Source of the DNA: Acidobacteriota bacterium
Lineage (GTDB): Bacteria > Acidobacteriota > Thermoanaerobaculia > Multivoradales > Multivoraceae
Length of the DNA: 62,830 bases
Assembly: GCA_026708285.1 (NCBI GenBank)
Contig: JAPOVF010000260.1
Coordinates: forward strand, 1-62,830
Direction of reading: 5' to 3'
Positions 13,339 to 62,830 of this stretch are shown here, piece by piece. The position numbers and the translations under genes were made by a program. The stretch's first letter is position 1, and each line of letters starts with the position of its first letter. The notes under the pieces were generated by a model, which saw nothing but the letters and a program-made list of their open reading frames with translations, ran no database searches and was not told the DNA's origin.

Positions 13339-13657
13339 CTCATCCTCCGCTGGCCGTCCGCCGCGAGGCCCGCCGGTGACCAACAAGCCGGCTCGCTGCC
13401 CCCAATCTGTGCCGGGATGATACCCGAACAGGGCTGGTGAAGAACGGCCCGGACCGCAGTGTCAAGGGCCAGACTATACCCTCCCGGGCTTTACGCAAAC
13501 TCTGGAAACAAAGAGGTTACGGTCAGTGACAAGGCTCGTCGGCGGTGGCGTGGCGACGCGGTCGCGAACCATCTCGAGGCGATCTTCGATCCAGCGGCCC
13601 GGATCGACGCATTCCGGCCGCGAGTAGCTCTCCACTACGATTCGCCGAGCACGGTCA

Positions 13658-15882: not shown

Positions 15883-15979
15883 CCGCCCGGCAAACAGCGG
15901 CGTATGCTCGAACGCCACCACCGGCACAGGCGCTATGGGTCGCGGCCGCCAACCGAACCCGCACCAGGAGACAACCGCC

Positions 15980-16828: not shown

Positions 16829-16842
16829 CGGCCACGAAACGG

Positions 16843-17841: not shown

Positions 17842-17848
17842 CCCCGAC

Positions 17849-18532
17849 TCAGGGCGGATCGGCGTAGGGCTCGTCCTCGGGCACAAACTCCGTCTCCAAT
17901 CTGGCCGCCCGGCTCCACTCGCGCATCGCCATCGTGTCGAGCAGGGCGCGGCAGTAGTCCTGGGCTTCGCGGTCCAGCGGAGGATCGTAGGTGGCAAACC
18001 GCGACGCGACCGGCAGGAAGTAGGCGTCCGCGGCCGAGAAGTTGCCGAACAGGTACGGGCTCCGCGTGCCGAACTCGGCGCGGGTATCGCGCCAGAAGGC
18101 GGTCAGCCGTTCGATCTCGGCGATGACTTCCGGCTCGTGCCCCTTGCCCGGGTGGTGCGAGCGGATGTTCATCGGCATCGCTGAGCGCAGCGCCGCGTAG
18201 CCGGAGTGGAAGTTCGCGACCAAGGACCGTGCCCGGGCCCGGGCCCGGCCCTCGGCCGGCCAGATCCCGCGGTCGGGATAGAGGTCGTTCAGCCGCTCGA
18301 TGATCGCCGAGGTGTCGAAGGTGGCGAAGCCGCTTCCCGGCTCGCCCTCCCACAGCACCGGCACCAGCCGCGCAGGGGACAGTGTGCCGATGCTGGCCTC
18401 CCAGTCCTCCGAGTCGAACTTCAGCATCCGTTCAGCGAACGGGATGCCGAGTTCGGTCATCAGCGCCCACGGCCGGAGCGACCACGAGGAGTAGTTCTTG
18501 TTGCCGATGACAAGGGTGAGGGGCGCCGCCAT
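17849..18532 (-). CDS. Glutathione S-transferase family protein
   Basis: IGNKNYSSWSLRPW, SPARLVPVL, D(T)SAI.E and YLFGNFSAADA. Confidence 0.93.
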   Translation of the reverse strand: MAAPLTLVIGNKNYSSWSLRPWALMTELGIPFAERMLKFDSEDWEASIGTLSPARLVPVLWEGEPGSGFATFDTSAIIERLNDLYPDRGIWPAEGRARARARSLVANFHSGYAALRSAMPMNIRSHHPGKGHEPEVIAEIERLTAFWRDTRAEFGTRSPYLFGNFSAADAYFLPVASRFATYDPPLDREAQDYCRALLDTMAMREWSRAARLETEFVPEDEPYADPP

Positions 18533-18603
18533 CGCGCGAGCATAGAAGAGATCCGCGACTCCCGGGGATGACGGACGCGAGTACAGGCGCTATCCTGAAA
18601 CAG

Positions 18604-19548
18604 GTGCTCCCATCACGCAGCCCGAGCCTCCAGTTCGCGCTCGCCGCCGCCCTGGTGGCTGCGGCGCCACTAAGCGCGCAGGCCGACCCGAACTGGACCC
18701 CGCCCGGCGACATCGACGGGCTGTGGGACTTCGCCACGGCAACGCCGCTGCAGCGCCCCTCCGCGCACGCCGACAAGGAGTACTTCACCGCCGATGAGGC
18801 CGCCCAGTTCGAGCGCGACACGATCGCGCGCCGCGCCGAGGCCCAGAAGCGGAGCCCGAGCGTCCACGCGCCCTACTGGCTCGACCACGGGCGCCACGTG
18901 CAGGAGTCCCGCCGCACGTCGCTGATCTTCGACCCGCCGACCGGCCGCATCCCGCCGATGACCGAGGACGGCCGGCGCCGGGCACAGGAACGGAGGGATC
19001 TGCGCGCCAGTCCGCCGACCGGCCCCGAGGACCGGAACCTCTGGGAACGCTGCCTGATGGGCTTCAACGCCGGCCCGCCGATGAACCCCGGCGGCTACAA
19101 CAACAACGTGCTGATTCTGGTGACGCCGGACACCGTGGCACTCCTCAACGAGATGGTCCACGACACCCGGATCGTGCCCCTCGACGACGAGCCCCGCCTG
19201 CCTGAGCACGTACGCCAGTTCAAGGGCGACTCCCGCGGCTACTGGGACGGCGCAACCCTGGTCGTCGAGACCCGGAACTTCGACCCCCGGATCAGCTTCG
19301 CCGGCTCCGGCGGCAACATGCGGCTCGTCGAGCGCTTCACCCGCTTCGACGAGACGACCCTCATCTACGAGTACACGATCGACGACCCGGAGTCCTTCCA
19401 GCGCCCCTGGAGCGCACGGGTCGAGATGAAGCGGTCGGACCAGGCGATCTTCGAGTACGCCTGCCACGAGGGCAACTACGGCCTGCTCAACATCCTCGAG
19501 TACGCGCGCACCAACGAGAAGCGGGCTAACGAGGCTCCAGCAGAGTGA
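18604..19548 (+). CDS. Exported conserved hypothetical protein ('ERC...FEYACHEGNY' family), copy 1
   Basis: Signal peptide, with an in-frame GTG at 18604 after a TATCCT -10 (ORF track start is 18568). Aligns by eye along its length with 57988-59049. Confidence 0.8.
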   Translation: MLPSRSPSLQFALAAALVAAAPLSAQADPNWTPPGDIDGLWDFATATPLQRPSAHADKEYFTADEAAQFERDTIARRAEAQKRSPSVHAPYWLDHGRHVQESRRTSLIFDPPTGRIPPMTEDGRRRAQERRDLRASPPTGPEDRNLWERCLMGFNAGPPMNPGGYNNNVLILVTPDTVALLNEMVHDTRIVPLDDEPRLPEHVRQFKGDSRGYWDGATLVVETRNFDPRISFAGSGGNMRLVERFTRFDETTLIYEYTIDDPESFQRPWSARVEMKRSDQAIFEYACHEGNYGLLNILEYARTNEKRANEAPAE

Positions 19549-19581
19549 CGCCAGGCAGCCGCGGGCGGGTGTAGCTGACGG

Positions 19582-21414
19582 CTAGCCGCCGGAGGCGTAC
19601 GCGGTGACGTCGTCGCGGTGCGTCCACCAGCCGGGGCTGGTCCACCAGTCGCTGCCCGGGGGCGGCGTCGGCTGGAACAGGAAGACGCCGGAGGGCGCGA
19701 ACTCGACGCCGCGGATGCGCTTGCTGAAGGCGCGGATCTCGGAGTAGTTCCACATCATCGTGAACGGCTGATCCTCGGCGACGACGTAGGCCAGCTCCCG
19801 ATAGATCGCGGCGCGCGCTTCGGGGTCGAACTCCCGCCGACCGCGCTCGAGCAGATCGTCGACCCGTTGGCTCTTGTAGCCGACGTAGTTGCGGGCGTTG
19901 TCGTAGCTCGTCGAGTGGAGGCGGATCGTCCATTGATCCGGATCGGTGGTCACCTCGTCGGCATCCGCGTGGGCCTGGAACTCGTGCTCCTGCAGGTGCC
20001 GCTCGTGGGTCGCGTTCTCGAACTGGCGAAGCGTCAGCTCGACGCCGATGCTGCGCAGATCCTCGCGGTAGATGTCCGCCATCTTGACCGCGTCCGCGAA
20101 GGTCTGGGCGATCTCCAACTCGAACGAGAACTTGACCCGCTCGCCGTTGATCTCCCTGTAGCGCCAGCCGTCGTCGGGGTCCGGTAGCCAGCCGGCCTCG
20201 TCGAGCAGCTCGCCGGCGCGCTCGAGGTCGAACGGGTACTTCGGCACGTCCGGGTTGTAGCCCATGTGCTCCTTGTCCCAGAGCTGGTCGGTCTCCAGGT
20301 AGACCCCGTAGGCGACGTCCCGGATCACGCGCTTCTGATCGTAGGCGTGGGTCATGGCCCGCCGCACCCGCACGTCGGTGAAGAACGGGTTGCTGCCGTC
20401 CTGGTTCCAGCCGATTCGCGAGATTCGCCGCGCCGGCGCCCAGCCCTTGACGCCGACCCGCTCGAACTCCTCGTCGTTGCTCTGGGTGGCGAACTGCTGG
20501 GGCGTGAACCAGTACTCGTCGAGTTCGCCCTTCTTGAACAGCAACAGGCCGAGGTTGCGGTCGCTTTGCGGCCGGTAGATCACGCGCCTGAAGGGCGCGA
20601 TACGTACCGCGTCGGGGAACTCGTCCCAGCGCTCGACCACGATCTTGTCGGTCAGGGTCCAGGACACGAACTTGTACGGCCCCGAGCCGATGACTTCCTC
20701 GCGCGCGTAGTGGTTGAAGTACTCGCTGCTCCACATCGTCGGGTCGTTCGCGAGCTCTTCCGGGTTGTTCCAGATGTGGCGCGGAATCGGGGGCACTCGC
20801 ATGGCGAGCATGTTCGTGACCAGGGCGTCCTTGAAGTGGAACACGACGGTCAGATCGTCGACCACGTCGATCCACTCGACCTGGTCGACGTCGTGCTTGT
20901 ACATCGCCGCCGGCACGTCGTCCGAAGCCACCATGTCGTAGGTGAACTTCAGGTCGTGCATCGTCCACGGCTTGCCGTCGTGCCAGGTCAGCCCCGGCCG
21001 GATGCGCACGCGGGCGCTCATCCAGTCGTCCGCGATCACGGCCTCTTCGACCACGGTCTGGTTCCACACCATCGTCATGTCGGCGTTGCGCGTCGTCAGC
21101 GACTGGAACAGCGCGCCCGACAGGTAGTAGTCCTCCCAGAAGATCGCGAAGATCGGGTTCAGCGTGCGCGGGTCGCCGAACATGTAGCGAACCAGCGTGT
21201 CGTCCCGGGCCACAACCTCCGGCCGGTCGAACGGGTACGGCTCGGTCAGCGTCGGCGGGTTGACGAGCGGGTCGGTCCGCGGGTCGTAGGCCGGGCCCGA
21301 GGGCGCGGTCGAGCGCTCCGGCAGCGGGCCGGTGCAGGCGGCCGCGAAGGCGACCAGGACGCTGACGACGACGAGACCCGCCGCGTAGCGGGGCAGCAAC
21401 GATCTGGAGGGCAT
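19582..21414 (-). CDS. ABC transporter substrate-binding lipoprotein, family 5 (peptide/nickel)
   Basis: Lipobox FAAAC, DPRTLNP, LTWHDGKPWT..D.KFT and IGSGPYKF family-5 motifs. Confidence 0.92.
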   Translation of the reverse strand: MPSRSLLPRYAAGLVVVSVLVAFAAACTGPLPERSTAPSGPAYDPRTDPLVNPPTLTEPYPFDRPEVVARDDTLVRYMFGDPRTLNPIFAIFWEDYYLSGALFQSLTTRNADMTMVWNQTVVEEAVIADDWMSARVRIRPGLTWHDGKPWTMHDLKFTYDMVASDDVPAAMYKHDVDQVEWIDVVDDLTVVFHFKDALVTNMLAMRVPPIPRHIWNNPEELANDPTMWSSEYFNHYAREEVIGSGPYKFVSWTLTDKIVVERWDEFPDAVRIAPFRRVIYRPQSDRNLGLLLFKKGELDEYWFTPQQFATQSNDEEFERVGVKGWAPARRISRIGWNQDGSNPFFTDVRVRRAMTHAYDQKRVIRDVAYGVYLETDQLWDKEHMGYNPDVPKYPFDLERAGELLDEAGWLPDPDDGWRYREINGERVKFSFELEIAQTFADAVKMADIYREDLRSIGVELTLRQFENATHERHLQEHEFQAHADADEVTTDPDQWTIRLHSTSYDNARNYVGYKSQRVDDLLERGRREFDPEARAAIYRELAYVVAEDQPFTMMWNYSEIRAFSKRIRGVEFAPSGVFLFQPTPPPGSDWWTSPGWWTHRDDVTAYASGG

Positions 21415-34919: not shown

Positions 34920-36944
34920 ATGAACCGCCGCACCGTCGCCGCGCTGGTCATCAACGACCTGCGCCAGCTCGCCCGCAATCCGCGGGTGCTCGTGTTCGCG
35001 GTCGCCCTGCCGCTCGTCCTGTGGCCGCTGATGTGGTTCCTGACCTCGCTGACCACGGAGCGCCGGCAGGAACGGATCGAGAGCCGCACCTACACCTACG
35101 CCGTGGCCGACGAAGCGGCCGAAGTCGCAGGCGCCGCCGACACCCGGACGTGGCTCGAGCGGGCTCTGGCCGTCGTCGGCGGCGACGGCCCGGCCGACGG
35201 CGACGAACCGACGGACGGCCCGGCGGTTCGCTTCGAGCGAGTCGAAGCCCCGGACGATGTTGCGGCCGCGCTCGACGAAGAGCGACTCCACGTTCACGTG
35301 GCCTGGGAGGCCGGAGGCGACGAAGACGTCCCGGCACCGCGCATCGTCCTCTCGCACCGTGCGGATCTCGACGCCTCGGACTCCGCCGAGGGGTTTCTGA
35401 GGCGGGCGCTCGAGCGCACTCGAACCGAAGTCCGCGAAAGGCGGCTCACGGATGCCGGCTTCGCGTCGCCGCCCGAAGACCTGCTGCCGCTCGAGCGGAT
35501 CGAGACGGCAAGCGAGGAACAGACGTCCGGGCTGCTGCTGGGACGCCTGCTGACCGCGATCATCGTGATGATGATGCTCGCGGGCGGCTCGATCGTGGCC
35601 ACCGACGCACTAGCCGGCGAGAAGGAACGCGGCACGCTCGAAACCCTGCTAACCACAGCCGCAAGCCGCGTCGAGATCGTCACCGCGAAGAACCTGTCGA
35701 TCCTGGCCGTCGCCTTCGCCACCAGCGTGCTCAACATCGTGAACATCGTCGTCTGGATGCAGCTCGACCTGATCGCGCCGCCCGCCGGCATGAAACTGGT
35801 CATTCCGGTCGGCGCTGGCCTGCTGCTGCTCCTGCTGTACGCGCCGGCCGCCGTGCTCCTCTCGAGCAGCCTGCTGCTGGTCTCCGGCCGGTCGAAGACG
35901 TACAAGGAAGCCCAGTTGCTGTTCGCGCCCGTGATGCTCGTCGCCATGGCCGTCGCGGCGATTCCCGTCCTGCCGGGCGTCGAGCTGCGCAGCGCGATCG
36001 TCCTGTTGCCGATCGCGAACCTGGGCGTGGCCGCCCGCGAGATCCTGACCGGCACCTACGACTGGCCCCTGCTCGCCGCCGCCTGGGCGGTCACCGGCGG
36101 CGCCGCCGCCCTGCTCGCCCGCGCTTCGTTGCGCACGTTGTCGGCAGAGAAGCTGATCACCGCCAGCGAACTCGACGCCGCCGACCTCGCCGGCGGGCCA
36201 GCGCTCTTCCCGCGCCGCGTTGCGCGCTGGTTCGCCGCTCTCTGGGCCCTGCTCCTCGTCTGGCAACTCAACATCGGCGGCAACATCGACAGCCGCCTGC
36301 TGATCTCGATCAACATGGCCATCTTCGGTGCCGCGGCCTGGCTGATGATCTCCCGCTACCGGCTGCCCGTGCGGCAGACGCTCTCGCTCCGTGCGCCGCC
36401 GGCCCGAGCGTGGCTCGGCGTCCTGATCGGCGCTCCCGCCGGTCTGATGCTGGCCGACGGCGTCGTCCGGCTCGCCAGTCTGGCCATGCCGATCCCGGAG
36501 GCCTGGATCGAGGCGATGGCCGAGAACATGGGCGTGACCCTGCCGCTCTGGCAGATGCTCATCTTCTTCTCCCTGATGCCCGCCCTCTTCGAGGAGGTCG
36601 CGTTTCGCGGCGTTCTGCTCCACGGACTGAAGGACCGCCTGACCACCCTCCAGCTCGTCCTGGTCGCCGGCATCGCCTTCGGCTTCTTCCACGTCGACCT
36701 GTTCCGCATCCCGCCGACTTCCCTGCTGGGGATCTTCCTGGTCGTCACCGTCATCCGGTCCGGCTCGATCTTCCCGGCCATGGCCTGGCACGCCCTCCAC
36801 AACGCGCTGGCCCTGGGCAGCGCCCGCGTCGAGCAGATCGCCCTGCCCGAACAACCGATCTGGTGGCACTACGCGCTGGCCGTGTTGGCGATCCTGCTGG
36901 CCTTCCGGTTGATGAAGCGGAGGACGAGAGCCGCCTTCAGTTGA
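34920..36944 (+). CDS. NatB-like ABC permease fused to a C-terminal CPBP (CAAX/Abi) intramembrane glutamic protease
   Basis: AGEKERGTLETLL permease motif, followed by CPBP motifs FEEVAFRG, FGFFH and HALHN. Confidence 0.88.
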   Translation: MNRRTVAALVINDLRQLARNPRVLVFAVALPLVLWPLMWFLTSLTTERRQERIESRTYTYAVADEAAEVAGAADTRTWLERALAVVGGDGPADGDEPTDGPAVRFERVEAPDDVAAALDEERLHVHVAWEAGGDEDVPAPRIVLSHRADLDASDSAEGFLRRALERTRTEVRERRLTDAGFASPPEDLLPLERIETASEEQTSGLLLGRLLTAIIVMMMLAGGSIVATDALAGEKERGTLETLLTTAASRVEIVTAKNLSILAVAFATSVLNIVNIVVWMQLDLIAPPAGMKLVIPVGAGLLLLLLYAPAAVLLSSSLLLVSGRSKTYKEAQLLFAPVMLVAMAVAAIPVLPGVELRSAIVLLPIANLGVAAREILTGTYDWPLLAAAWAVTGGAAALLARASLRTLSAEKLITASELDAADLAGGPALFPRRVARWFAALWALLLVWQLNIGGNIDSRLLISINMAIFGAAAWLMISRYRLPVRQTLSLRAPPARAWLGVLIGAPAGLMLADGVVRLASLAMPIPEAWIEAMAENMGVTLPLWQMLIFFSLMPALFEEVAFRGVLLHGLKDRLTTLQLVLVAGIAFGFFHVDLFRIPPTSLLGIFLVVTVIRSGSIFPAMAWHALHNALALGSARVEQIALPEQPIWWHYALAVLAILLAFRLMKRRTRAAFS

Positions 36945-45062: not shown

Positions 45063-47531
45063 ATGACCGAGGCTGCGCCGGAGCGTGATGCGGGCGACTC
45101 CCGGTCCCCGGAACTGTCGGCTCCACGGCCACGCCTGAGCGCGCTGGCCGCGTGGGGCGCGTTCGGGGTCTTCGCGATCTGGTTCGCAGCCCGCCTGATC
45201 CCCAGCCTCGCTCTGCGGCTACGCTTCGAGGACCAGTTGATCGTGCTCCGCTACGCCCGCAACTTGGCGGAGGGCGATGGCCTCGTCTACAACGCCGGCG
45301 AGCGAGTGATGGGCTTCACGACCCCGCTGTTCACGGTGCTGAGCAGCGTGTTCGTGGTCCTCGGCGGAGACGAGGCGGCGGCATGGCAGAACGGGTTCGG
45401 CCTGCTCTGCATGCTGGGCACCGCCGCACTCGCCGCCAGACTACTGGTCCGCCTCGGTGCCGGGACAGCCACGCCCCTGGCGGTGGCCCTGGTCACCTTC
45501 AATCCGGCTGTCGCCTACAACTATCTCTACGTGGGGATGGAAATCCACCTCTTCGCCCTGCTCTTCCTGCTGGCCCTGGAGCTGCACCTGAGCGAACGCA
45601 CCACCGCCGCCGCGGTCACGTCGGCGCTGCTGTTTCTGACCCGACCGGAGGGCGCCCTTCTTGCCGGCATGCTGATCGCTCACCCGTGGCTCCGGCGGCG
45701 CCAGGCGTCTTGGGCTCCGGCGCTGGCGGCGCTGGCCACGGCAGTGCCGTGGCTCCTTTTCGCCGCCCTGTACTACGGCGACATCCTGCCGAAGACGCTG
45801 GGAGCGAAAGAAGGCGAGAGCATCGTCTCTCCCTGGCGCTACCTGGACCTGGTGCGAGAGGTGTACGCCGAGGCGGCCGGCAGTTTGCTGGCAGCATGGA
45901 GTCCCTGGTTGGCGGAGACGATTGCCGGGCCGCTGCTTCTGGTCGCCCTTCTGGTCGCCGGAGCCACGGCGCTCCTGCGCCGCGAGGCGGCGCTGTGGCC
46001 CTTGATCGCCTTCCCGCTCTGCTCGCTCCTCGGCTATGCCGCGATCGGCTCGCTGCCGGGCTACACGTGGCACTACTACACGCTGAACGTGCTCAGCGCG
46101 TTCCTCCTCGCCCTCGGCGTTCACGCCTGCCTGGTCGCTACGGGCCGACTCTGCCGGCGGGCCGCTGAGCTGGTGTCCGCAGCCGCGCGCATCGCCCCCC
46201 GGCGCCGCCCGCTCCTCGCGGTCCTGCTAGCCGCGATCCCGATCCTCGCCCTCACGGCGCCGGTGCTGCGGGACACCTCGCGGCAGATCGGACATCGAAT
46301 CGAGCCGACCGCCCGGGAGCAACGGTTGGAAGACATCGGCCGATGGCTCGCCGAGCACTACGAGCCGAGCACGTCCGTTCTCGTTCGCGAGATCGGCCAC
46401 GTCGGCTGGGTCAGCGGGCTGCGCATCGTCGACCGGGGCGGTCTGGTCACGCCAGGCCTTCGCTACGACGTGCCGCGCCGCGTCGCCACCATGAAGTTCC
46501 TGCCGGACCTGCTGCTGCTGCGAGCGGACAACTACGGAGTCCGGGATCCCCGCGAAGGCGCCGGCTTCCCTGCGAACCTGGGCTACGAACGGGTCGAGGG
46601 GTTCGACCACGGACAGGAGTGGAGCCTCCACTCGCTGATCGCACCCGGCGCCTCCTCCGGGCGCGAAGAGGATCGAACCCGCTACGAGGTCGCCCGAAGC
46701 GCCGCCGGCCACCTCGAGGCCGTGCTCCGCTACCGCGTCGTCGACGGCGAATCCGAACCGCCGACCCGAATACCCATCAACCCGCCCGCCACCGGCTTCG
46801 ACGGCGCGCTCGATGCGGTGCTGCCACGATCCGGCCACGGGCCAGTCGACGCCGTGGCCGACATCGTGGTCAGCGGTTTCATCCGCGACGAACCGCCGGA
46901 TCCCCGCGGCGTCGAGGCGGTCCTCCTGTTCACCGGCGGCGAGATGACGGTTCACCAGCCCGGCGTTCACCCTCGCCCCGATCTCGCCGCCCTCTACGGA
47001 CCGCCTTTCGGGAACGGTGGCTTCGCGTTCCGGACCCCGGCCGATCGGAATCTCGTCGAGCGCGAAGGCGTCCTCGCCTACGCGGTGTCGCGGCGCGGAG
47101 TGGCCAGCCGCCTCCGCTTTGCCTATCTGCCTCTCGAGTGGGAGCCCCGCAACCGCGAGATCCTGCCGACGACCGACGGGCGTCGCCTGGCCGTGCGTCC
47201 GCCAGGCGACGGCTACCACGGGGAGTCGCGCCTCCTCGCGTCAGGAAACCGCGTCGAGATCGAAGGCTGGGCGTTGGACGCCGCACGAGGCCAGCGGCCG
47301 CGCCAGATCGTCATCTACCGGGACAACCACTTTCTGACCAACCTGGGGCTCAACCAGGAACGACCCGACATCGCCGAGCGCTTCGGGAATCCGGCTCTGC
47401 TGCGGGCCGGTTTCGGCGGCGCCGTTCCGGGAGAAGCCGACGCCGCTTCCCCTAGCGAGCGTTACCGCGTGTTCGCCATCATGCTGCGCGGCGCCGCCGT
47501 GGAACTCAATCCGCCGCGGACAGCGCCTTGA
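45063..47531 (+). CDS. GT-C-fold membrane glycosyltransferase-like protein with the same C-terminal module
   Basis: EDQLIVLRYARNLAEGDGLVYNAGERVMGFTTPL (DDxxIxxRYAxN family), GME, TRPEG, YYGD.LP.T..AK and many TM segments. Confidence 0.78.
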   Translation: MTEAAPERDAGDSRSPELSAPRPRLSALAAWGAFGVFAIWFAARLIPSLALRLRFEDQLIVLRYARNLAEGDGLVYNAGERVMGFTTPLFTVLSSVFVVLGGDEAAAWQNGFGLLCMLGTAALAARLLVRLGAGTATPLAVALVTFNPAVAYNYLYVGMEIHLFALLFLLALELHLSERTTAAAVTSALLFLTRPEGALLAGMLIAHPWLRRRQASWAPALAALATAVPWLLFAALYYGDILPKTLGAKEGESIVSPWRYLDLVREVYAEAAGSLLAAWSPWLAETIAGPLLLVALLVAGATALLRREAALWPLIAFPLCSLLGYAAIGSLPGYTWHYYTLNVLSAFLLALGVHACLVATGRLCRRAAELVSAAARIAPRRRPLLAVLLAAIPILALTAPVLRDTSRQIGHRIEPTAREQRLEDIGRWLAEHYEPSTSVLVREIGHVGWVSGLRIVDRGGLVTPGLRYDVPRRVATMKFLPDLLLLRADNYGVRDPREGAGFPANLGYERVEGFDHGQEWSLHSLIAPGASSGREEDRTRYEVARSAAGHLEAVLRYRVVDGESEPPTRIPINPPATGFDGALDAVLPRSGHGPVDAVADIVVSGFIRDEPPDPRGVEAVLLFTGGEMTVHQPGVHPRPDLAALYGPPFGNGGFAFRTPADRNLVEREGVLAYAVSRRGVASRLRFAYLPLEWEPRNREILPTTDGRRLAVRPPGDGYHGESRLLASGNRVEIEGWALDAARGQRPRQIVIYRDNHFLTNLGLNQERPDIAERFGNPALLRAGFGGAVPGEADAASPSERYRVFAIMLRGAAVELNPPRTAP

Positions 47532-54296: not shown

Positions 54297-56159
54297 ATGC
54301 GTCTTGCCCGCGCTGCGCTCGTTTCCGCGGCTCTCTTCTCGCTCGTCCTGCTCGGCTGCGCTGCCGGCGACCAGGAAGCCGGCGCCGGTACGGCCGGTGA
54401 CGGCGAGGGTCCGGCGCCGAATCCACTGAAGGACGCCTACTTCGGCGACCTTCACGTCCATACGAAGTACTCCTTCGACGCCTACCTGTTCACGACGCGC
54501 ACGAACCCCGACGACGCCTACCGCTTCGCCAAGGGCGAGGCGATCGACCACCCCAGCGGCCACCAAATCCAGCTCCAGAGCGGCGCCCTCGACTTCCAGG
54601 CGGTGACCGACCACGGCCTGTACCTGGGCGTCCTGCCGGAGATGGACAACCCGGAGAGTCCCCTCTACGCGACCGTGCTCGGGACCGATCTCCGCGAAGG
54701 CGGCGGCTTCGCCCGAGCGATCCAGGGGCTGCGCAGCGGCGAGTTCGCGGAACTGCCGGAAGACGACGTGGATCAGGCCGCCCGCACCGCCTGGCAGGCG
54801 ATCATCGATGCCGCCGAGGCCCACAACGACCCCGGAACCTTCACGACCTTCGTCGGCTACGAGTACACGACGTCGTCCGACGACCGGGGCAATCTGCACC
54901 GCAACGTGATCTTCCGTGGCAGCAACGTGCCGCCGAAACCGTTCGCGTCGACCGATTCGCGCAATCCGGAGGACCTGTGGCGCTGGCTCGACGAACGCCG
55001 GGACGAGGGCATCGAAGGGCTCGCCATTCCGCACAACTCGAACGGCAGCAACGGCCACATGTTCAAGCTGGAGACGGTGGGCGGCGAGCCGCTCGACGCC
55101 GCCTACGCCGACCTGCGCATGCGCAACGAGCCCCTGGTCGAGATGACCCAGGTCAAGGGCACGTCGGAGACGCACCCGCTCCTGTCGCCCAACGACGAGT
55201 GGGCCGACTTCGAGATCTTCCCGTATCGCATCGCCACGACCCTCTACAGCGAGCCGAAGGGCAGCTACGTCCGCGAGGCATACGTCAACGGTCTCGTGCT
55301 GCAGGAGACGCAGGGCTTCAATCCCTTCCGGTTCGGCATCCTCGCCGCCACCGACACCCATAACTCCGGCGGCACGCCCGAGGAGGACAACTTCCACGGC
55401 AAGGTCGGTCGCGGCGACGGTACCGGCCAGGGTCGCGGCTCGGTGCCGCTCGACGAACCGACCGAGGACGGCGAGCGGTACGCACAGAACAGCTTCAAGT
55501 ACTGGGGTGGCTCGGGGCTCGCCGCGGTCTGGGCCGAGGAGAACACCCGCGACGCGATCTACAACGCCTTCCGGCGCAAGGAGACCTTCGCCACCAGCGG
55601 TCCCAGGATGCGGGTTCGCTTCTTCGGCGGCTACCACTACACGGACGACCTGACCTCCGACCCGGAGATGATCGCCGCCGCCTACGAGGGCGGCGTGCCG
55701 ATGGGGGGCGACCTGGTGGCGGACGAGGGCAGGAGCCCGCGCTTCCTGGTCTGGGCGGCCCGCGACGCGGACAGCGCCCCGCTCCAGCGCCTGCAGATGG
55801 TCAAGGGCTGGGTCGAGGACGGGGAACCGCGCGAATCGGTCGTCGACATCGCCTGTGCCGATGGCGGCATTCCCTCAGGCGATCCGCTCCGCTGCCCCGA
55901 CAACGGCGCCAGCGTCGATCTCTCGGACTGCGGCTACTCCCAGGACCTCGGCGCCGCCGAACTCTCGGCCCTATGGACCGACCCCGACTTCGACGCGGCG
56001 AGGCACGCCGTCTACTACGTGCGCGTGCTCGAGAATCCCACCTGCCGCTGGTCGACCTGGGACGCGCTCCGTGCCGGCGTGGAGCCCAATCCCGACATGC
56101 CGTCGACGATCCAGGAACGCGCCTGGTCATCGCCAATCTGGTACGTGCCGGGCGGGTAG
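54297..56159 (+). CDS. DUF3604-domain (PHP-like metallo-hydrolase) lipoprotein, copy 1
   Basis: Lipobox LLGC, YFGDLHVHT, AVTDH, HRNVIFR, IPHNSNGSNG, ETFATSG, and RVLENPTCRWS...QERAWSSPIWY. Confidence 0.82.
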   Translation: MRLARAALVSAALFSLVLLGCAAGDQEAGAGTAGDGEGPAPNPLKDAYFGDLHVHTKYSFDAYLFTTRTNPDDAYRFAKGEAIDHPSGHQIQLQSGALDFQAVTDHGLYLGVLPEMDNPESPLYATVLGTDLREGGGFARAIQGLRSGEFAELPEDDVDQAARTAWQAIIDAAEAHNDPGTFTTFVGYEYTTSSDDRGNLHRNVIFRGSNVPPKPFASTDSRNPEDLWRWLDERRDEGIEGLAIPHNSNGSNGHMFKLETVGGEPLDAAYADLRMRNEPLVEMTQVKGTSETHPLLSPNDEWADFEIFPYRIATTLYSEPKGSYVREAYVNGLVLQETQGFNPFRFGILAATDTHNSGGTPEEDNFHGKVGRGDGTGQGRGSVPLDEPTEDGERYAQNSFKYWGGSGLAAVWAEENTRDAIYNAFRRKETFATSGPRMRVRFFGGYHYTDDLTSDPEMIAAAYEGGVPMGGDLVADEGRSPRFLVWAARDADSAPLQRLQMVKGWVEDGEPRESVVDIACADGGIPSGDPLRCPDNGASVDLSDCGYSQDLGAAELSALWTDPDFDAARHAVYYVRVLENPTCRWSTWDALRAGVEPNPDMPSTIQERAWSSPIWYVPGG

Positions 56160-57931
56160 TGCCCTTGCGCCAAGGGCCCTGCCTCTACTGCCTTGTCCTG
56201 GTTCCGGGTCTACTGGCAGCGTCGGAAACCACCGTCCCGCCCAATCCGCTCAAGGACGCCTACTTCGGCGATCTGCACGTCCACACGCGGTACTCCATCG
56301 ACGCCTACCTGTTCGGAGTCCGCACCGATCCGGACGACGCCTACCGGTTCGCACGCGGCGAGGCGATCGAACATCCGAGCGGCTTTCGTTTCCAGCTCCG
56401 GACCGGCCCGCTCGACTTCCTGGCGGTCACCGATCACGGCGCCTTCCTATACGAGATGCCCGCCACCTACAACCCGGAGAACTCCTTCTTCGCCGCGATC
56501 GGCCCGGGCGGCAACCGCGCGAACGCACCGGTCGCCGCCGAGACAGGCGACGGTCGCAACGCATGGCAGGAAACCATCGATGCCGCCGAGCAGCACAACG
56601 ACCCGGGCAGCTTCACGACCTTCATCGCCTACGAGTACACCGCGTTCTCCGAGGGCCGCGGCAATCTTCATCGCAACGTGATCTTCAGGGGCGGCGAGGC
56701 GCCGGCGAAGCCGTTCACCGCCGACGACTCGAACGACCCGGAGGACCTCTGGCACTGGCTGGACGCGCGGCGCGCCGAGGGTTTCGAGGCGCTCGCGATC
56801 CCCCACAACTCGAACGGCAGCAATGGCCAGATGTTCCGGCTCGCTCGGGTAGACGGCCGGGACTTCGACTCCGCGTACGTGGAACAGCGAAACCGCAACG
56901 AACCCCTGGTCGAGATCACCCAGGGCAAGGGCACGTCGGACACCCATCCGCTCCTGTCGCCGAACGACGAGTGGGCCGACTTCGAGATCTACGCCTTCCG
57001 CATCGGCACCACGCTCCCGAGCCAGGCTCCCGGAAGCTATGTGCGCGAGGCCTACCTGAGCGGCCTCGTGCAACAGGAGACCCGCGGCTTCAACCCGTTC
57101 CGCTTCGGGCTGATCGGTTCCACCGACTCCCACAACGCGGGCGGCACGACCGGAGAGTCCAACTTCCACGGCAACTTCGGAACTGGCGACGGCACCCCCG
57201 AGCGGCGCGGCGCGGTACCCCTCGGCAGCGGAGGCTCGCCCGGGCGGAAGTACAGCCAGACGAACAACCGCTTCTACAGCGGCTCCGGTCTGACCGGAGT
57301 CTGGTCCGAGCAGAACACGCGCGACTCGATCTACGCCGCGTTGCGGCGCAAGGAGACCTTCGCCACGACCGGGCCGCGCATCCGCGTCCGCTTCTTCGCC
57401 GGCTACGACTACGCCGACGACTTCACGTCCGATCCCCAGATGATCGAGAAGGCCTACGAAGGCGGCGTACCGATGGGTGGCGACCTGCTGGCGGACCGCG
57501 GCCGAAGCCCCCGCTTTCTGGTCTGGGCCGCCCGCGACAAGGACAGCGCGCCGCTTCAGCGCCTGCAGGTGGTCAAGGGCTGGGTCGAAGATGGAGAGGG
57601 GCACGAGCAGGTGGTCGACGTCGCCTGTCCGGGTGGCGCAATCCCAGGGGGAACCCCGCTCCGCTGCCCCGACGACGACGCCAAGGTCGATCTCTCGGAC
57701 TGCAGCTTCCCGCAGAACGCCGGCGCCGCCGAACTCACCGCGCTGTGGCAAGACCCCGACTTCCACCCCGCCAAACACGCCGTCTACTACGTCCGGGTGC
57801 TCGAGAACCCGACCTGCCGCTGGTCGACCTGGGATGCGCTCCGGACCGGCGTCGAGCCGCGGCCGGACTTGCCGGCGACGCTCCAGGAGCGGGCCTGGTC
57901 TTCGCCGATCTGGTACGTGCCGGGCGACTAG
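56159..57931 (+). CDS. DUF3604-domain protein, copy 2
   Basis: GTG overlapping the copy-1 stop (TAGTG). Same motif set as copy 1, with a hydrophobic N-terminus but no clear lipobox. Confidence 0.82.
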   Translation: MPLRQGPCLYCLVLVPGLLAASETTVPPNPLKDAYFGDLHVHTRYSIDAYLFGVRTDPDDAYRFARGEAIEHPSGFRFQLRTGPLDFLAVTDHGAFLYEMPATYNPENSFFAAIGPGGNRANAPVAAETGDGRNAWQETIDAAEQHNDPGSFTTFIAYEYTAFSEGRGNLHRNVIFRGGEAPAKPFTADDSNDPEDLWHWLDARRAEGFEALAIPHNSNGSNGQMFRLARVDGRDFDSAYVEQRNRNEPLVEITQGKGTSDTHPLLSPNDEWADFEIYAFRIGTTLPSQAPGSYVREAYLSGLVQQETRGFNPFRFGLIGSTDSHNAGGTTGESNFHGNFGTGDGTPERRGAVPLGSGGSPGRKYSQTNNRFYSGSGLTGVWSEQNTRDSIYAALRRKETFATTGPRIRVRFFAGYDYADDFTSDPQMIEKAYEGGVPMGGDLLADRGRSPRFLVWAARDKDSAPLQRLQVVKGWVEDGEGHEQVVDVACPGGAIPGGTPLRCPDDDAKVDLSDCSFPQNAGAAELTALWQDPDFHPAKHAVYYVRVLENPTCRWSTWDALRTGVEPRPDLPATLQERAWSSPIWYVPGD

Positions 57932-57987
57932 GGAGGCCGGTCTACAATGGCCCGCGTATCGAACGAAGTCGGCTGGGAGGGGCTCGC

Positions 57988-59049
57988 ATGAGCATCAAGG
58001 GAAGAACCCGCATTGCCTTCATCCTCACTCTCGCCGTCGGCGCCAGCGGAGCCGCGGCAGGGGACGACATCCCCAGGACCCCGGGCGGCAAGCCGGACTT
58101 CTCCGGCAACTACGACATCAGCACGCTGACGCCGGTGCAGCGGAGCCCCGAACTGGGGAATCGCCTCACCCTGACCCCGGAGGAAGCGCAGGCCATCCGG
58201 GATCGTGAGGCCCAGAACATCGACGCGAGATCGCGCGCCAGCGATCCGAACCGCGACGCTCCGCCGGTCGGCGGCAGCGTCGGCGGCTACAACTACTTCT
58301 TCATGGACCGTGGCACCAGCGCGGTCACCGTCGACGGCAAGTACCGGACCTCCCTGCTCACCGACCCGTCCAACGGCCGTTTTCCGCCGCTCACCGAGCG
58401 CGGCAAGGCGCGCCGGGAAGGGATCTACGGATTCTCGAAGCGGAACACCGGCCCCGCCTGGTGGCGCGACCGCGAGGTCGGTCCCTACGACCACCCCGAG
58501 TCCCTGTCGATCGCGGACCGCTGCGTCTTCTCCCTGGAAGCGACGATCCCGATCTACCCGAAGAACTACAACAACATCAAGACGATCGTGCAGACGGACA
58601 CCCACCTGATGATCCTGATCGAGTGGATGCACTACGCGCGCGTCATCCCCATCAGCCCGTCCAGGGAGGAAGCCCAGCATCTACCCTCCCTGATCCGCTC
58701 CCGTGCCGGCGATTCGGTGGCCTGGTGGGAGGGTGACACCCTGGTCGTCGACACGACGAACTTCCTGGAAGAGAAGTGGGGGGCGACCACGCTCTTCGGC
58801 GAGCCCTCCCCGCCCGCCGACCAGCATGTGGTCGAGCGCTTCTCGTTCCAGGACGAGAACACCCTGCTCTACCAGTTCACGCTCGAGAGCGGCGACTGGG
58901 AGACGCCCTACGGCGGCGAGTACACGTGGCCGGCCACCGACGCCAAGCTGTACGAGTTCGCCTGCCACGAGGGCAACTACGCGACCGGGAATACGCTTCG
59001 CGGTGCGCGCCTTGAAGAGAGGGAAGTCGCAGCGCAAACGGGCGGGTAA
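57988..59049 (+). CDS. Exported conserved hypothetical protein ('DRC...YEFACHEGNY' family), copy 2
   Basis: GGAGG RBS, signal peptide, PDFSGNYD, TPVQR, YRTSLLTDP.NGR.PPLT, GDSVAWWEGDTLVVDT.NF and ACHEGNY. Confidence 0.8.
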   Translation: MSIKGRTRIAFILTLAVGASGAAAGDDIPRTPGGKPDFSGNYDISTLTPVQRSPELGNRLTLTPEEAQAIRDREAQNIDARSRASDPNRDAPPVGGSVGGYNYFFMDRGTSAVTVDGKYRTSLLTDPSNGRFPPLTERGKARREGIYGFSKRNTGPAWWRDREVGPYDHPESLSIADRCVFSLEATIPIYPKNYNNIKTIVQTDTHLMILIEWMHYARVIPISPSREEAQHLPSLIRSRAGDSVAWWEGDTLVVDTTNFLEEKWGATTLFGEPSPPADQHVVERFSFQDENTLLYQFTLESGDWETPYGGEYTWPATDAKLYEFACHEGNYATGNTLRGARLEEREVAAQTGG

Positions 59050-59091
59050 CCAGATCCGTACAACAAACCGGACCCACCGACGAGGGGAGGC

Positions 59092-60825
59092 GTGTGTATG
59101 TCCGACGTTCAGTGGAATCGTAAAGGCGGCCGCGGCAAGAGCGGATTGCTCCTGCGACGCCTTCTGATCAGTCTCTGCGGCCTCGCTCTCGCGGCGGCGC
59201 CGGCGGCCGGCCAGTCGAGTGTCCTGGACGCGATGAAGGCGGAACTCGACCGCTCCATGGAGCTGCTCGGCGAGGAGGAGACGCCGCCGTACTTTCTGAG
59301 CTACGAGATCTCGGAAAGCCGGAGCGCGTCCGCCTCGGCCTCGTTCGGAGCTCTCACCGGCAGCGATGAGCGGCACGAGCGTTTGCTCGACATCGACCTC
59401 CGCGTCGGCGACTACAGCCTCGACAACACTCGACCGATTCGCGACACCTTCTTCTCCTCGGCGTTCCTTGGCGCCGGTCGCACCCAGGTACCCCTCGACG
59501 ACGACCCCGGCGCGATCCGCGGCGTCCTGTGGGCCGAGACCGACAAGGAGTACAAGCGCGCGCTCGAGCAACTCACCCAGGTGAAGACGAACGTGCAGGT
59601 CAAGGTCGAGGCCGAGGACCAGTCCGACGACTTCTCCCGCGAAACCCCGTCCAAGGGCGTCGACGAGCCCCGGCCCGTTGAGTACGACCGCGCCGAATGG
59701 GAGGACAGGGTCAGGCGCTACTCGGCGCCGTTCGCCGAACATGGCGAGTTCCTGCGGGCCTCGGCATCCCTCACCGCCGGTACGGACACCCGCTGGTTCG
59801 TCAACAGCGAGGGTTCCGAGATTCAGACTTCGGAGACCAGGTACCGCCTCTTCGTCTCGGCGATGACGAAGGCCGACGACGGCATGGAACTGCCGCTCTA
59901 CAAGAGCTACAGCTCCTTCACGCTCGACGGACTACCGGACGACGAGACCGTCGAGCGGGATGTCCGCAAGATGATCGAGATCCTCCTGGCACTCCGTGAA
60001 GCCCCGCTCGTGGAGCCGTACACGGGCCCGGCGATCCTGTCCGGCGAAGCCAGCGGCGTCTTCTTCCACGAGATCCTCGGACACCGGCTCGAGGGTCATC
60101 GCCTGAAGGAAGCCGATGACAGCCAGACGTTCCGCGACCAACTGAACCAGCGTGTCCTGCCGGAGAGCTTCTCCGTGCACTTCGATCCGACGATCAGGAC
60201 CTACGGGCCATCCGACCTGGTCGGCAGCTATCGCTACGACAACCAGGGGGTGGCGGCTCGCCGGGTGACCGCGATCGACAAGGGGATCCTGAAGAACTTC
60301 CTCATGTCCCGCTCCCCCATCGACGGTTTCCCGAACTCCAACGGCCACGGCCGCAAGCAGCCCGGTCGCAAGCCGGTATCCAGACAGTCCAACCTGATTG
60401 TCGAGGTAACCAATCCCCTCACGAGTGACGAACTGAAAGCGAGATTCGTCGAGGCGATCGAGGCAGCGGAGAGACCGTTCGGACTTCGCATCGAGGAGAT
60501 CCAGGGAGGCTTCACGTTCACCGGACGGATGATTCCCAACTCGTTCAACGTGTCGCCGCTCCTCGTCTACCGCATCTACCCGGACGGCCGCGAGGAACTC
60601 GTCCGTGGCGTCGACCTGATCGGCACGCCACTCACGACGTTCAGCCGCGTGGTCGCGGCCGACGACAGGATCGGCGTGTTCAACGGCTTCTGCGGCGCGG
60701 AGTCGGGCATGGTGCCCGTCTCCGCGGCCGCACCGTCGATCCTCGTGTCGCAGATCGAGGTGCAGAAAAAGGAGAAGTCTCAGGACCGACCACCCCTGCT
60801 GCCCGCTCCTGTGGGGGACTTCTAG
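59092..60825 (+). CDS. tldD: TldD-like metalloprotease with N-terminal signal peptide (start may be 59098)
   Basis: FFHEILGHRLEG (HExxGH), YRYDNQGV, GHGRK, SRQSNL and GFCG third ligand. Signal LLRRLLISLCGLALAAAPAAG-Q. Confidence 0.85.
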   Translation: MCMSDVQWNRKGGRGKSGLLLRRLLISLCGLALAAAPAAGQSSVLDAMKAELDRSMELLGEEETPPYFLSYEISESRSASASASFGALTGSDERHERLLDIDLRVGDYSLDNTRPIRDTFFSSAFLGAGRTQVPLDDDPGAIRGVLWAETDKEYKRALEQLTQVKTNVQVKVEAEDQSDDFSRETPSKGVDEPRPVEYDRAEWEDRVRRYSAPFAEHGEFLRASASLTAGTDTRWFVNSEGSEIQTSETRYRLFVSAMTKADDGMELPLYKSYSSFTLDGLPDDETVERDVRKMIEILLALREAPLVEPYTGPAILSGEASGVFFHEILGHRLEGHRLKEADDSQTFRDQLNQRVLPESFSVHFDPTIRTYGPSDLVGSYRYDNQGVAARRVTAIDKGILKNFLMSRSPIDGFPNSNGHGRKQPGRKPVSRQSNLIVEVTNPLTSDELKARFVEAIEAAERPFGLRIEEIQGGFTFTGRMIPNSFNVSPLLVYRIYPDGREELVRGVDLIGTPLTTFSRVVAADDRIGVFNGFCGAESGMVPVSAAAPSILVSQIEVQKKEKSQDRPPLLPAPVGDF

Positions 60826-60827
60826 CC

Positions 60828-62630
60828 ATGCGCCTGTCCTTGCAGAACCGTAGGTCACCGCTAGCGCCGGTCACTCTTCTGGCCGCGTTCGTGGCCCTGT
60901 CCCTCGTCCCGCTCCCCGCGGCGAACGCTCAGGAAGAAGCCCAACTCAACGTGATCATGCAGGCGATGCGCGATGAACTGGCGCGCAGCACCGAGCAGCT
61001 CGAGCTGGAAGGACTCGAAAAGCCCTACTTCCTCGCGTACACCGTGCGGGAAACGGAACAGCTGAACGCCGCCGGGAGCTTCGGAGCACTGCTGTCGAGC
61101 TCAGTAAACAAGGGAAAGCGACTGAGCGTCGAAGTGCGCATTGGCGACCCGTCGTTCGACAACACGAACTTTGGCTCCATGTCCCTCTTCCCGTCGAGCT
61201 TCGCGATGGGGGGATTCCTGCCGCTGGAGAACGACTACCGCGAGATCAGGCGGCAGATCTGGCTCGCCACGGACCAGGCCTACAAAGCCGCACTGGAGTC
61301 GCTGGCCGAGAAGCGTGCGGTGCTCCAGAACGAAACGCGGGCCGAGGACATCGCCGACTTCTCATCGGAGGAGCCGTTCACGTACTTCGACCAGGCCGAC
61401 TCCGACCTCCCGCCCCGAACGGCACTCGAAGAACTCGCCCGGGACCTTTCCGCCGCGTTCAGGGACCTGCCCGAGATCTTCAGTTCGAACGTTTCGGTTT
61501 CGGCCGGCAACCGGCGCACCTACTACCTGAACAGTGAGGGCTCCGCGTTCATCCGGTCCGATCCCACCGCTGCGATCGCCGTGGAGGCTCGCACCCAGGC
61601 CACGGACGGTACGGTTCTGAACGACTCCGTCGCGGCCCGCGGCCGTTCCTGGGACGACATCAACGACCGGAACGATCTGGAATCGCGTATTGCCGCAATG
61701 GGCGCCAATCTGACCGCTCGACGTTCTGCAGAGGGTCTCGACCGCTACAGCGGCCCCGTGCTGTTCGAAGGTCAGGCCGCCGCCGAACTGTTCGCTCAGG
61801 TGCTGGTGCCCAGATTGCTGGGCAACCGCGTACCCGACGCTGAACCGAACTTCGCGCGCATGCTGCAGCAGAGCCGCAACCCGTTCCTCGACCGGATCGG
61901 GGCCAGGGTGCTGCCGAGATTCCTCAACATCCACGACGACCCCTCCGCCGACGGCGACGGTTTCCTCGGCGGTTACCCGGTCGACGACGACGGCGTCGAG
62001 GCAAGGTCGAAGGCCCTGGTCGAGAACGGCATCCTGAAGTCTCTGCTCACGTCCCGCAACCCGGTCCCGGGAATCGAGCGAAGCACCGCGAACCGACGCG
62101 GTGAAGGTCCGGCGCCAAGCAACCTGATCGTCGCCTCGCGTCGCGGCATGAACGACGAAGAGCTCCACGCCGAGTTGATGCTGCTCGTCGAGGAACGGGG
62201 AGCCGACTACGGCATCGTCGTCCGCCGCATGGCCAAGCCCGAGTCCACGGGCGATCCGGCGTCCGCCTTGAGCCTCCTGCGCTCGGGACCCCAGGCGGGT
62301 CCACAGCTCGGCATTACCAGCCTCGCCTACAGGGTCTTCCCGGACGGCAGGGAGGAACTGATTCCCAAGGCGGAACTGGTCGCCGTGACCGAAGCAGCGT
62401 TCCGCGACATCGTGGCCGTATCCGATACGTCGACCGTGTACAGCTTCCCCCACACACCCGCCGGTGGGTTGATCCCGTCCTTCCTGGCGGGCGCACTCAG
62501 TGCTCTCGGCCTGGGCGAGCTTGTATCGGTTTCCATCCCCGATCTGCTCTTCGAAGAGCTGAGTCTGCGCAAACCGTCCGGGAACGCTCCCCACCTGCCG
62601 GTGGCGAACCACCCCTCCTTCGACCCCTAG
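60828..62630 (+). CDS. TldE/PmbA-like non-catalytic partner with N-terminal signal peptide
   Basis: Homologous to the upstream gene (AMRDELARS, KPYFLAY, YSGPVLF, DDDGV...LVENGILKSLL, PSNL) but lacks HExxH. Signal ends ANA-Q. Confidence 0.8.
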   Translation: MRLSLQNRRSPLAPVTLLAAFVALSLVPLPAANAQEEAQLNVIMQAMRDELARSTEQLELEGLEKPYFLAYTVRETEQLNAAGSFGALLSSSVNKGKRLSVEVRIGDPSFDNTNFGSMSLFPSSFAMGGFLPLENDYREIRRQIWLATDQAYKAALESLAEKRAVLQNETRAEDIADFSSEEPFTYFDQADSDLPPRTALEELARDLSAAFRDLPEIFSSNVSVSAGNRRTYYLNSEGSAFIRSDPTAAIAVEARTQATDGTVLNDSVAARGRSWDDINDRNDLESRIAAMGANLTARRSAEGLDRYSGPVLFEGQAAAELFAQVLVPRLLGNRVPDAEPNFARMLQQSRNPFLDRIGARVLPRFLNIHDDPSADGDGFLGGYPVDDDGVEARSKALVENGILKSLLTSRNPVPGIERSTANRRGEGPAPSNLIVASRRGMNDEELHAELMLLVEERGADYGIVVRRMAKPESTGDPASALSLLRSGPQAGPQLGITSLAYRVFPDGREELIPKAELVAVTEAAFRDIVAVSDTSTVYSFPHTPAGGLIPSFLAGALSALGLGELVSVSIPDLLFEELSLRKPSGNAPHLPVANHPSFDP

Positions 62631-62830
62631 CGGCCTCGCGGCTCGCTCAACCCCCACAACGCGGACGTCGCGAACTCCAGGCTGTTTCCGTCCGGATCGC
62701 GAAAGTAGATGGATCGTCCGCGACTGCCGCCCCAGTCGATCTCCTGCTCGACCGGAACGTCGTGGCTCTCGAGATGAGCACGCCAGAGGTCGATCTCATC
62801 CTCCGTGACGCCGAACGCAAGATGACCGGG
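62627..62830 (-). CDS. VOC (glyoxalase/bleomycin resistance) family protein, 3' part only
   Basis: Not in the ORF track. The minus strand reads PGHLAFGVTEDEIDLWRAHLESHDV...GRSIYFRDPDGNSLEFAT...*. Confidence 0.88.
   Translation of the reverse strand, partial: PGHLAFGVTEDEIDLWRAHLESHDVPVEQEIDWGGSRGRSIYFRDPDGNSLEFATSALWGLSEPRGR

Follow-up and report, generated by a model that had tools for sequence, protein, structure and literature searches.

Can a peptidase of the TldD/TldE type be built to work outside the cytoplasm? This question is raised by two adjacent genes near one end of the window, that is, the whole stretch of 62,830 nucleotides analysed here (positions 1 to 62,830 of contig JAPOVF010000260.1, assembly GCA_026708285.1, from an Acidobacteriota bacterium). 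To our knowledge, all of the characterised TldD/TldE enzymes are cytoplasmic, and are involved in the maturation of microcin B17 and other peptides that are ribosomally synthesised and then modified post-translationally (RiPPs), or in the turnover of CcdA. The two open reading frames (ORFs), at 59092..60825 and 60828..62630 on the plus strand, are separated by a gap of 2 bp (TAG-cc-ATG), and encode proteins of 575 and 600 amino acids, referred to throughout as D and E, each of which begins with a hydrophobic leader. The exported pair is real, widespread, and uncharacterised, and is not specific to the window. The fuller interpretation, in which a translationally coupled operon would give rise to a Sec-exported metallopeptidase of two subunits, forming a periplasmic cage that acts on unfolded peptides, is considered here to be rather probable.

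The first step is the assignment of the two proteins. Both are members of the TldD/PmbA superfamily (MEROPS M103), although they belong to neither of the canonical families, given that the Pfam and fold matches are clear, while the scores fall far below the cut-offs of the NCBIfam equivalog models. The Pfam model PmbA_TldD_3rd matches D at 89.6 bits and E at 62.1 bits (cut-off 22), and PmbA_TldD_2nd scores 23.0 bits with D, above the cut-off of 20.9, and 20.7 bits with E, just under it; the N-terminal PmbA_TldD domain model matched neither protein in the Pfam scan. In the NCBIfam collection, D reaches 29 bits against the TldD equivalog NF008006 (cut-off 513), E reaches 25.1 bits against the TldE/PmbA model NF008268 (cut-off 438), and the top-scoring curated model for both proteins is that of the archaeal TldD, NF040952, at 70.6 bits for D and 34.1 bits for E, with a cut-off of 635. 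No curated NCBIfam model covers the pair, and the database names are generic only (“metallopeptidase TldD-related protein”, “TldD/PmbA family protein”). A sequence search of the PDB with D reaches the TldD of Escherichia coli alone (5nj5, E=3.4e-9), and the same search with E returned no match.

The predicted structures point in the same direction. The AlphaFold2 model of D, built from a 44-sequence alignment, has a predicted local distance difference test (pLDDT) score of 82.6, and its best Foldseek match, which spans the whole chain, is E. coli TldD (5njf_A, E=1.4e-27, TM 0.73 on the target, 541 columns). For E, confidence in the model is moderate (pLDDT 65.5); its Foldseek matches are to structures of TldD, TldE, and PmbA, with E values of around 3e-21 and a TM of 0.63–0.71. 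All 16 of the significant Foldseek matches of the two models are TldD, TldE, or PmbA chains.

The catalytic equipment is divided unequally between the two subunits. Gene D (59098..60825, plus strand, with an alternative GTG start at 59092) encodes the exported, catalytically equipped TldD-like subunit, which was identified by Pfam, the PDB sequence match, AlphaFold2, and Foldseek. It contains a single HExxxH motif, HEILGH (residues 324–329), within the predicted metal-binding and catalytic helix HEILGHRLEGHR (60067..60102, plus strand), in which H324, E325, H329, E332, H334, and R335 are invariant alignment columns. The probable third metal ligand, Cys532, lies within GFCGAESG (60685..60708, plus strand), where G530, C532, G533, A534, E535, S536, and G537 are also invariant; the signature of the D subfamily is HE[IV][LF]GHR[LIV]EGHR and GxCGAESG. 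In the match to 5nj5, H324, E325, H329, and C532 are aligned with H262, E263, H267, and C454 of E. coli TldD, and GFCGAESG with GVCGKEGQ, in which Cys454 is a metal ligand (PMC5810440).

Gene E (60828..62630, plus strand) encodes the exported partner, which is degenerate at the catalytic positions according to Pfam, AlphaFold2, and Foldseek, with neither an HExxxH motif nor a single cysteine over the whole chain. In the pairwise alignment with D, the counterpart of HEILGH is AQVLVP (61794..61811, plus strand), with H replaced by A, E by Q, and H by P. This division of the active site is not confined to the window, given that, across the 83 loci examined, HExxxH and GxCGxE are present in every first gene, and no second gene has either; one subunit thus carries HExxxH and the distal cysteine, and its partner lacks both. 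An earlier note on this DNA, made from the letters alone, had described two neighbouring genes 2 bp apart for a TldD/TldE protease pair, the first retaining an HExxGH-type motif and the cysteine of GFCG, the second lacking them, and all of these points agree with the coordinates, alignments, and structural matches given above.

The question of export rests on the leaders. That of D, MSDVQWNRKGGRGKSGLLLRRLLISLCGLALAAAPAAG, which is followed by QSS, corresponds to residues 1–38 (59098..59211, plus strand), and has an n-region with arginine and lysine, an h-region LLISLCGLALAA, and a c-region ending in AAG-Q. The leader of E, MRLSLQNRRSPLAPVTLLAAFVALSLVPLPAANA, followed by QEE, spans residues 1–34 (60828..60929, plus strand), with the h-region VTLLAAFVALSL and a c-region ending in ANA-Q. 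Both are thus organised into n-, h-, and c-regions in the manner of a signal peptide, and the residues at positions -3 and -1 are small (LLISLCGLALAAAPAAG before QSS in D, and VTLLAAFVALSLVPLPAANA before QEE in E). The highest Kyte-Doolittle mean over 12 residues is 2.52 for both leaders, in comparison with 0.94 for TldD and 1.03 for TldE of E. coli (NC_000913.3), which were used as negative controls.

These features are maintained in the relatives. The relatives recovered by word-indexed searches numbered at least 7985 for D and at least 1758 for E, and the leaders of the 120 best of each were compared. The leader sequences drift freely, while their hydrophobic character is retained, and they end just short of the conserved beginning of the mature chain, VLxAMKAELxRS in D and LMQAMRDELxR in E. 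Heuristic tests on the full-length homologues (114 of D and 115 of E) found a hydrophobic h-region in 111 of the former and 114 of the latter, and a crude test for the (-3,-1) site was positive in 111/114 and 96/115, respectively. The same pattern is found in ORFs read directly from the genomes of 80 GTDB species of the Acidobacteriota, Gemmatimonadota, Gamma- and Alphaproteobacteria, Latescibacterota, Verrucomicrobiota, Ignavibacteria/Kapaibacteria, Chlorobi, Bacteroidota, Planctomycetota, and Myxococcota. As hundreds of homologues, spread over many phyla, show the same features, the latter are far beyond what would be expected by chance.

A natural objection is that the starts have been called wrongly, and that the proteins are cytoplasmic, with translation beginning past the hydrophobic stretch. 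Long spurious 5' extensions are common in GC-rich regions, and D has an in-frame methionine, Met46, that could serve as such a start. This residue lies, however, inside the conserved first helix of the protein (L43, A45, and E49 are conserved), and the leaders are held in frame and in character across phyla of very different GC content. A Shine-Dalgarno-like sequence, GAGGGGAGG (59082..59090, plus strand, by direct reading), is found 7 nt before the ATG at 59098; this ribosome-binding site makes that ATG (575 amino acids) a likelier start for gene D than the GTG at 59092 (577 amino acids), and also speaks against a start farther downstream. The GC content at third codon positions, 0.86 in D and 0.82 in E, is like that of the other genuine genes of the window, which has 68% GC overall. 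True starts downstream of the hydrophobic segments, which the earlier note had named as the outcome that would undo its proposal, are effectively ruled out by the position of Met46 and the persistence of the leaders, and only a very remote chance is left to this explanation.

The strongest test of the signal-peptide reading is provided by natural fusions of the two genes. In loci L026, L036, L057, and L078, D and E form single ORFs of approximately 1100 amino acids, in which the tail of D (...LPILPAP) is joined to the mature start of E by a hydrophilic linker of 5–20 residues, and the leader of E is absent. In the exhaustive search, 57 of the top 149 representatives of clusters at 50% identity are fusions, all 57 with exactly one HExxxH, and 48 of them with the N-terminal leader retained. 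The leader is thus kept when the protein crosses the membrane alone, and is dropped behind another leader, which is how a signal peptide behaves; the loss of the E leader exactly where it is superfluous also contradicts a mis-called start. One further candidate for a fusion, L022, was rejected, as it contains an internal methionine and retains the leader, and is probably the product of a frameshift or a lost stop codon.

Taken with the homologue counts, the fusions support the conclusion that both subunits carry genuine, evolutionarily maintained export signals, as predicted from their sequences. The endings of the form AxG-Q and AxA-Q that had been described in the earlier note are present as AAG-Q in D and ANA-Q in E, and small residues at -3 and -1 are found in most of the homologues. 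The mature D protein contains exactly one cysteine, the metal ligand, in 106 of 111 homologues, and the mature E protein contains none in 115 of 119, which is circumstantial support for an extracytoplasmic location.

It is also conceivable that the leaders act as uncleaved signal anchors, tethering the enzyme to the inner membrane so that it faces the periplasm. Their cleavage is a prediction, the leader of D is long, with its charges on the N-terminal side, and a fusion that keeps the D leader alone could be held by a single anchor. The small residues at -3 and -1, however, stand directly ahead of the conserved mature start in most of the homologues counted above (111/114 in D, 96/115 in E), the h-regions, of around 12–17 residues, are short for a transmembrane helix, and the hydrophobic segment of E is dispensable in the fusions. 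Anchoring is accordingly considered unlikely, and cleaved signal peptides are preferred. A lipoprotein, processed by signal peptidase II at Cys27 of D, was also considered and rejected, as the site ISLC has leucine at -1 and the cysteine is not conserved (relative P0013 reads LIGLAAI); a lipobox-like string was found in 4/114 homologues of D and 4/115 of E.

Given cleavable leaders, the route across the membrane has to be identified. The earlier note had drawn attention to an arginine pair in each leader, and had raised the possibility of twin-arginine translocation (Tat), in which the subunits would fold and load their metal in the cytoplasm, and cross the membrane as a folded dimer. The pairs are indeed present in both window leaders, which are long (38 and 34 amino acids), and an enzyme that is a metalloprotein dimer would suit this route. 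Two observations on the closest relatives of D count in the same direction, and against Sec export: 20 of the 23 have an arginine pair somewhere in the n-region, and some read VRRPFLR, which is near the Tat consensus.

The pair is nevertheless not conserved as a Tat signal would be. Among these 23 relatives (79–94% identity), it is found at two different positions, and is absent in three (P0008, P0016, and P0022, 79–85% identical), and in 8 of the 20 closest relatives of E (84–100% identity) it is replaced by NRG, SRT, NRT, SRK, ERT, or DRT, or the segment itself is absent. Over the family as a whole, an arginine pair is found near the h-region in only a minority of the homologues (42/114 in D and 21/115 in E), the strict Tat motif is found in none of the 229 leaders, and many of the leaders are of the classical short, lysine-type Sec form (MKK...). 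The c-regions, moreover, have no basic residue, and the h-regions are strongly hydrophobic. When the N-termini of the window proteins and two relatives were scanned with Pfam and NCBIfam at E<=10, none of the matches was to a Tat-signal model; these scans had no positive control within the genome, given that a Tat leader is missing from the catalytic subunit, as called, of the molybdopterin oxidoreductase of locus L001, and that the long ORFs of the window contain no canonical Tat motif. By the heuristic tests, in turn, both window leaders are of the Sec/signal peptidase I type. Given the loss of the arginine pair in close relatives that share 80–91% identity, the lack of a strict motif, and the lack of a match to any Tat-signal hidden Markov model, the export of a folded, metal-loaded dimer does not hold up, and Tat is an improbable route for this acidobacterial clade. 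The leaders appear to be of the Sec type.

The association of the two proteins is suggested by their genes. In nearly all of the 83 loci, E comes after D, or the two are fused, the exceptions being contigs that end early, and loci L033, L035, and L066, in which no partner was detectable. The adjacency, the gap of 2 bp in the window, and the fusions, which provide Rosetta-stone evidence, point to a heterodimer of D and E. Two variants of the arrangement were recorded. A gammaproteobacterial metagenome-assembled genome (MAG), SB0670_bin_2, has two complete pairs in tandem (D-E-D-E; L048, 2439-9441), and, in a MAG of the Pseudomonadales (L009, 7796-11195), E is split into two parts approximately 1.7 kb apart (query residues 42–278 and 287–599), which suggests an insertion within the gene.

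The pair belongs to a very large family, and is not peculiar to the window. The D-E pair or its fusion is found in at least 572 GTDB species of many diderm phyla, and the exhaustive search recovered 5836 clusters at 50% identity with E<=1e-3, 3445 with 1e-10, and 1390 with 1e-30. The named host taxa are all diderm, with the exception of a single MAG that bears the label Clostridia, and of a few hosts described simply as “bacterium”. Gemmatimonas, Melioribacter, and Chloroherpeton are among the genera of the loci. The D protein of the window is approximately 95% identical to those of the Acidobacteriota MAGs RHO1_bin_33 and Candidatus Multivorans azotirespirans (class Thermoanaerobaculia).

Is the second gene, then, a TldE, as the earlier note had proposed? 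The comparisons favor a different origin. E shares 30% identity with D across 596 aligned columns, which take in the N-terminal helix and the C-terminal tail, and scores 219 bits with it, as against 41 bits with E. coli TldE; D scores 62 bits with E. coli TldD, and the two E. coli proteins score 70 bits with each other. The E-family profile gives 17.9 bits with E. coli TldE and 20.6 bits with TldD, and thus shows no preference for TldE, and E itself scores higher with the archaeal TldD model than with the PmbA model (34.1 and 25.1 bits). In a neighbour-joining tree of 11 D proteins, 11 E proteins, and the two E. coli proteins, the E. coli pair is separated from the D and E proteins in 100/100 bootstraps. 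The identification as TldE is thus not borne out, and the simplest reading of these sequence comparisons is that E is a paralogue of the exported D, rather than a demonstrable orthologue of TldE/PmbA, and that the exported pair arose by a separate duplication in a lineage that was already distinct, with the metal site being lost independently.

These elements can be combined into a broader evolutionary scenario, which is advanced tentatively, as somewhat less than an even prospect. A TldD-like ancestor would have gained a signal peptide and duplicated, one of the copies would have lost its metal site, in parallel with the cytoplasmic split between TldD and TldE, and the two genes would then have fused repeatedly. 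The product would act in the periplasm as a chambered peptidase of general function, and would trim peptides that are unfolded or imported, in the Acidobacteriota, Gemmatimonadota, the FCB group, Planctomycetota, and other groups.

How such an enzyme might work can be outlined by analogy with the canonical one, in which TldD and TldE form a closed shell, unfolded ends are threaded into it, and cleavage takes place without sequence preference (PMC5810440, PMC10885120). Here, D and E would each cross the inner membrane unfolded, by means of their own cleavable signal peptide, and signal peptidase I would trim them at AAG-Q and ANA-Q, respectively. In the periplasm, D would bind zinc or iron through H324, H329, and C532, and would combine with its inactive paralogue E into a closed shell resembling the one formed by E. 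coli TldD/TldE. Only unfolded peptide ends would be able to thread into this shell, through a narrow channel, and they would be cut at the active site of D irrespective of their sequence.

The most likely role would be the general degradation of periplasmic oligopeptides and unfolded polypeptides, either for the use of nutrient peptides or for the clean-up of the envelope. A general role is preferred to a dedicated product because the pair has no conserved neighbours and is spread over many diderm phyla. All-against-all clustering of the ORFs of the 83 loci found no conserved neighbour beyond synteny at the level of the clade; the largest cluster outside D and E, once a cluster of antisense ORFs internal to the D and E genes (67 loci) is discounted, is present in 8/83 loci, all of a single clade, and the flanks of the pair are wholly different among three distant genomes.

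The alternative is a protease dedicated to the maturation of a specific exported peptide, comparable with the removal of the leader of microcin B17, except that it would take place outside the cytoplasm. RiPPs are indeed matured by canonical TldD/TldE, the genes of which usually lie apart from the RiPP gene clusters (PMC10885120), so that the missing linkage is not decisive. Even so, none of the 83 loci, from many phyla, has a linked precursor, modification enzyme, or exporter, the flanks are unrelated between genomes, and a family this broad (at least 572 species, and 1390 clusters at E<=1e-30) is more consistent with a housekeeping function. Dedicated maturation is thus rated as improbable, and general periplasmic degradation is retained as the preferred role.

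A number of points weigh against this interpretation as a whole. The localisation and activity of every member of the family are predictions, and the physiological substrate is purely a matter of inference. A thiolate metal ligand would be unusual in an oxidising compartment. The heterodimer is deduced from gene arrangement, and the model of E is of no more than moderate confidence. The tree of the duplication, finally, is based on neighbour-joining distances, with E. coli as the sole canonical outgroup, and may be subject to long-branch attraction.

One structural feature of the pair may relate to its assembly. A proline-rich C-terminal tail is conserved in both subunits, and is disordered in the monomer models. 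In D, this tail, EVQKKEKSQDRPPLLPAPVGDF (60757..60822, plus strand), has no counterpart in E. coli TldD, and is modelled at low pLDDT (<50 at residues 561–575). Its residues E554, V555, Q556, K557, K558, S561, P566, L568, and P571 are invariant. The D tail, QKKxKSQxRPPxLPAP, can be aligned with the tail of E, LRKPSGNxPHLPVAxHP (62562-62627). The two tails might form an inter-subunit arm.

In the window, the pair closes a co-directional run of genes, formed by hutU, hutH, two DUF3604 genes, a gene for an exported protein of 353 amino acids, D, and E. The tandem DUF3604 paralogues are found at 54297-56159 and approximately 56159-57931 (plus strand), the first with a lipobox-like LLGC leader, and the 353-residue protein (57988-59049, plus strand), which lies between them and D, has a signal peptide, and matched no family in the Pfam scan. 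Scans of positions 57800-62830 found no promoter-like site, and a single terminator-like match, on the minus strand, below the expectation from shuffled sequences. The five successive exported proteins (the two DUF3604 proteins, the 353-residue protein, D, and E) may form one transcription unit, and the context of hutU, hutH, and DUF3604 would suit the scavenging of amino acids and peptides, but the arrangement from hutU to E is not kept in distant genomes.

Other genes were recorded in the same region of the genome. An ORF of 822 amino acids at 45063-47531 (plus strand) is gene-like in its third-position GC content (0.85), and has no Pfam family at E<=1e-5, and a protein of 674 amino acids at 34920-36944 (plus strand) has both ABC-2 permease domains and, at its C-terminus, a CAAX/Rce1-like protease domain. 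Past the right end of the window, at 11800-19804 of locus L001, and convergent with E, are genes for a glyoxalase, a TPR-thioredoxin protein, and a molybdopterin oxidoreductase set, which consists of a Nitrate_red_del chaperone, the catalytic subunit, and a 4Fe-4S/NrfD fusion.

If the proposed interpretation is correct, a large exported clade would extend the principle of the threading-cage peptidase to the cell envelope, and would provide a candidate periplasmic oligopeptidase for abundant phyla of soils, marine habitats, and symbioses, about whose envelope proteolysis little is known. An inactive partner that has apparently originated a second time, and independently, together with the many fusions, would also offer a clean system for the study of the evolution of pseudo-enzyme partners, and the natural single-chain fusions are ready-made candidates for structural work. 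The literature search, which did not cover a 2022 review of the family, found no paper characterising an exported TldD/TldE, and the belief expressed in the earlier note, that no periplasmic protease of this type had been characterised, stands within that scope.

The nearest functional parallel is provided by pitrilysin (protease III, PtrA, family M16) of E. coli, a zinc peptidase exported by Sec to the periplasm, where small unfolded peptides are enclosed in its chamber. The resemblance to the role proposed for D and E is one of functional analogy alone, and does not imply homology; the clam-shell fold of M16 and its HxxEH motif are unrelated. The archaeal TldD is closer in sequence, its model (NF040952) being the top curated match of both D and E. 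Sso0660 of Sulfolobus is reportedly a zinc-dependent protease of the TldD type. The archaeal protein has been described as an active homodimer, with no inactive partner (PMC5810440). In contrast with this cytoplasmic homodimer, D and E are predicted to form an exported pair of one active and one inactive subunit, and their scores lie far below the cut-off of the archaeal model.

The closest known system overall is the TldD/TldE complex of E. coli (PDB 5NJ5, PMC5810440). Both subunits appear to share its fold, HExxxH and the distal cysteine are likewise present in one subunit and absent from its partner, a 1:1 complex is implied here by the adjacency and fusion of the genes, and the same shell-and-threading mechanism would be expected. 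The differences are equally clear. The E. coli proteins have no signal peptide, while D and E both have one, and D and E are approximately 90–150 amino acids longer, with the conserved proline-rich tail in addition. The residues D272 and K456 of E. coli TldD, which form structural salt bridges (PMC5810440), are replaced in D by the invariant H334 and A534. The genes for D and E, finally, are adjacent or fused, unlike those of E. coli, and the inactive partner appears to be derived from the exported D itself, rather than from TldE.

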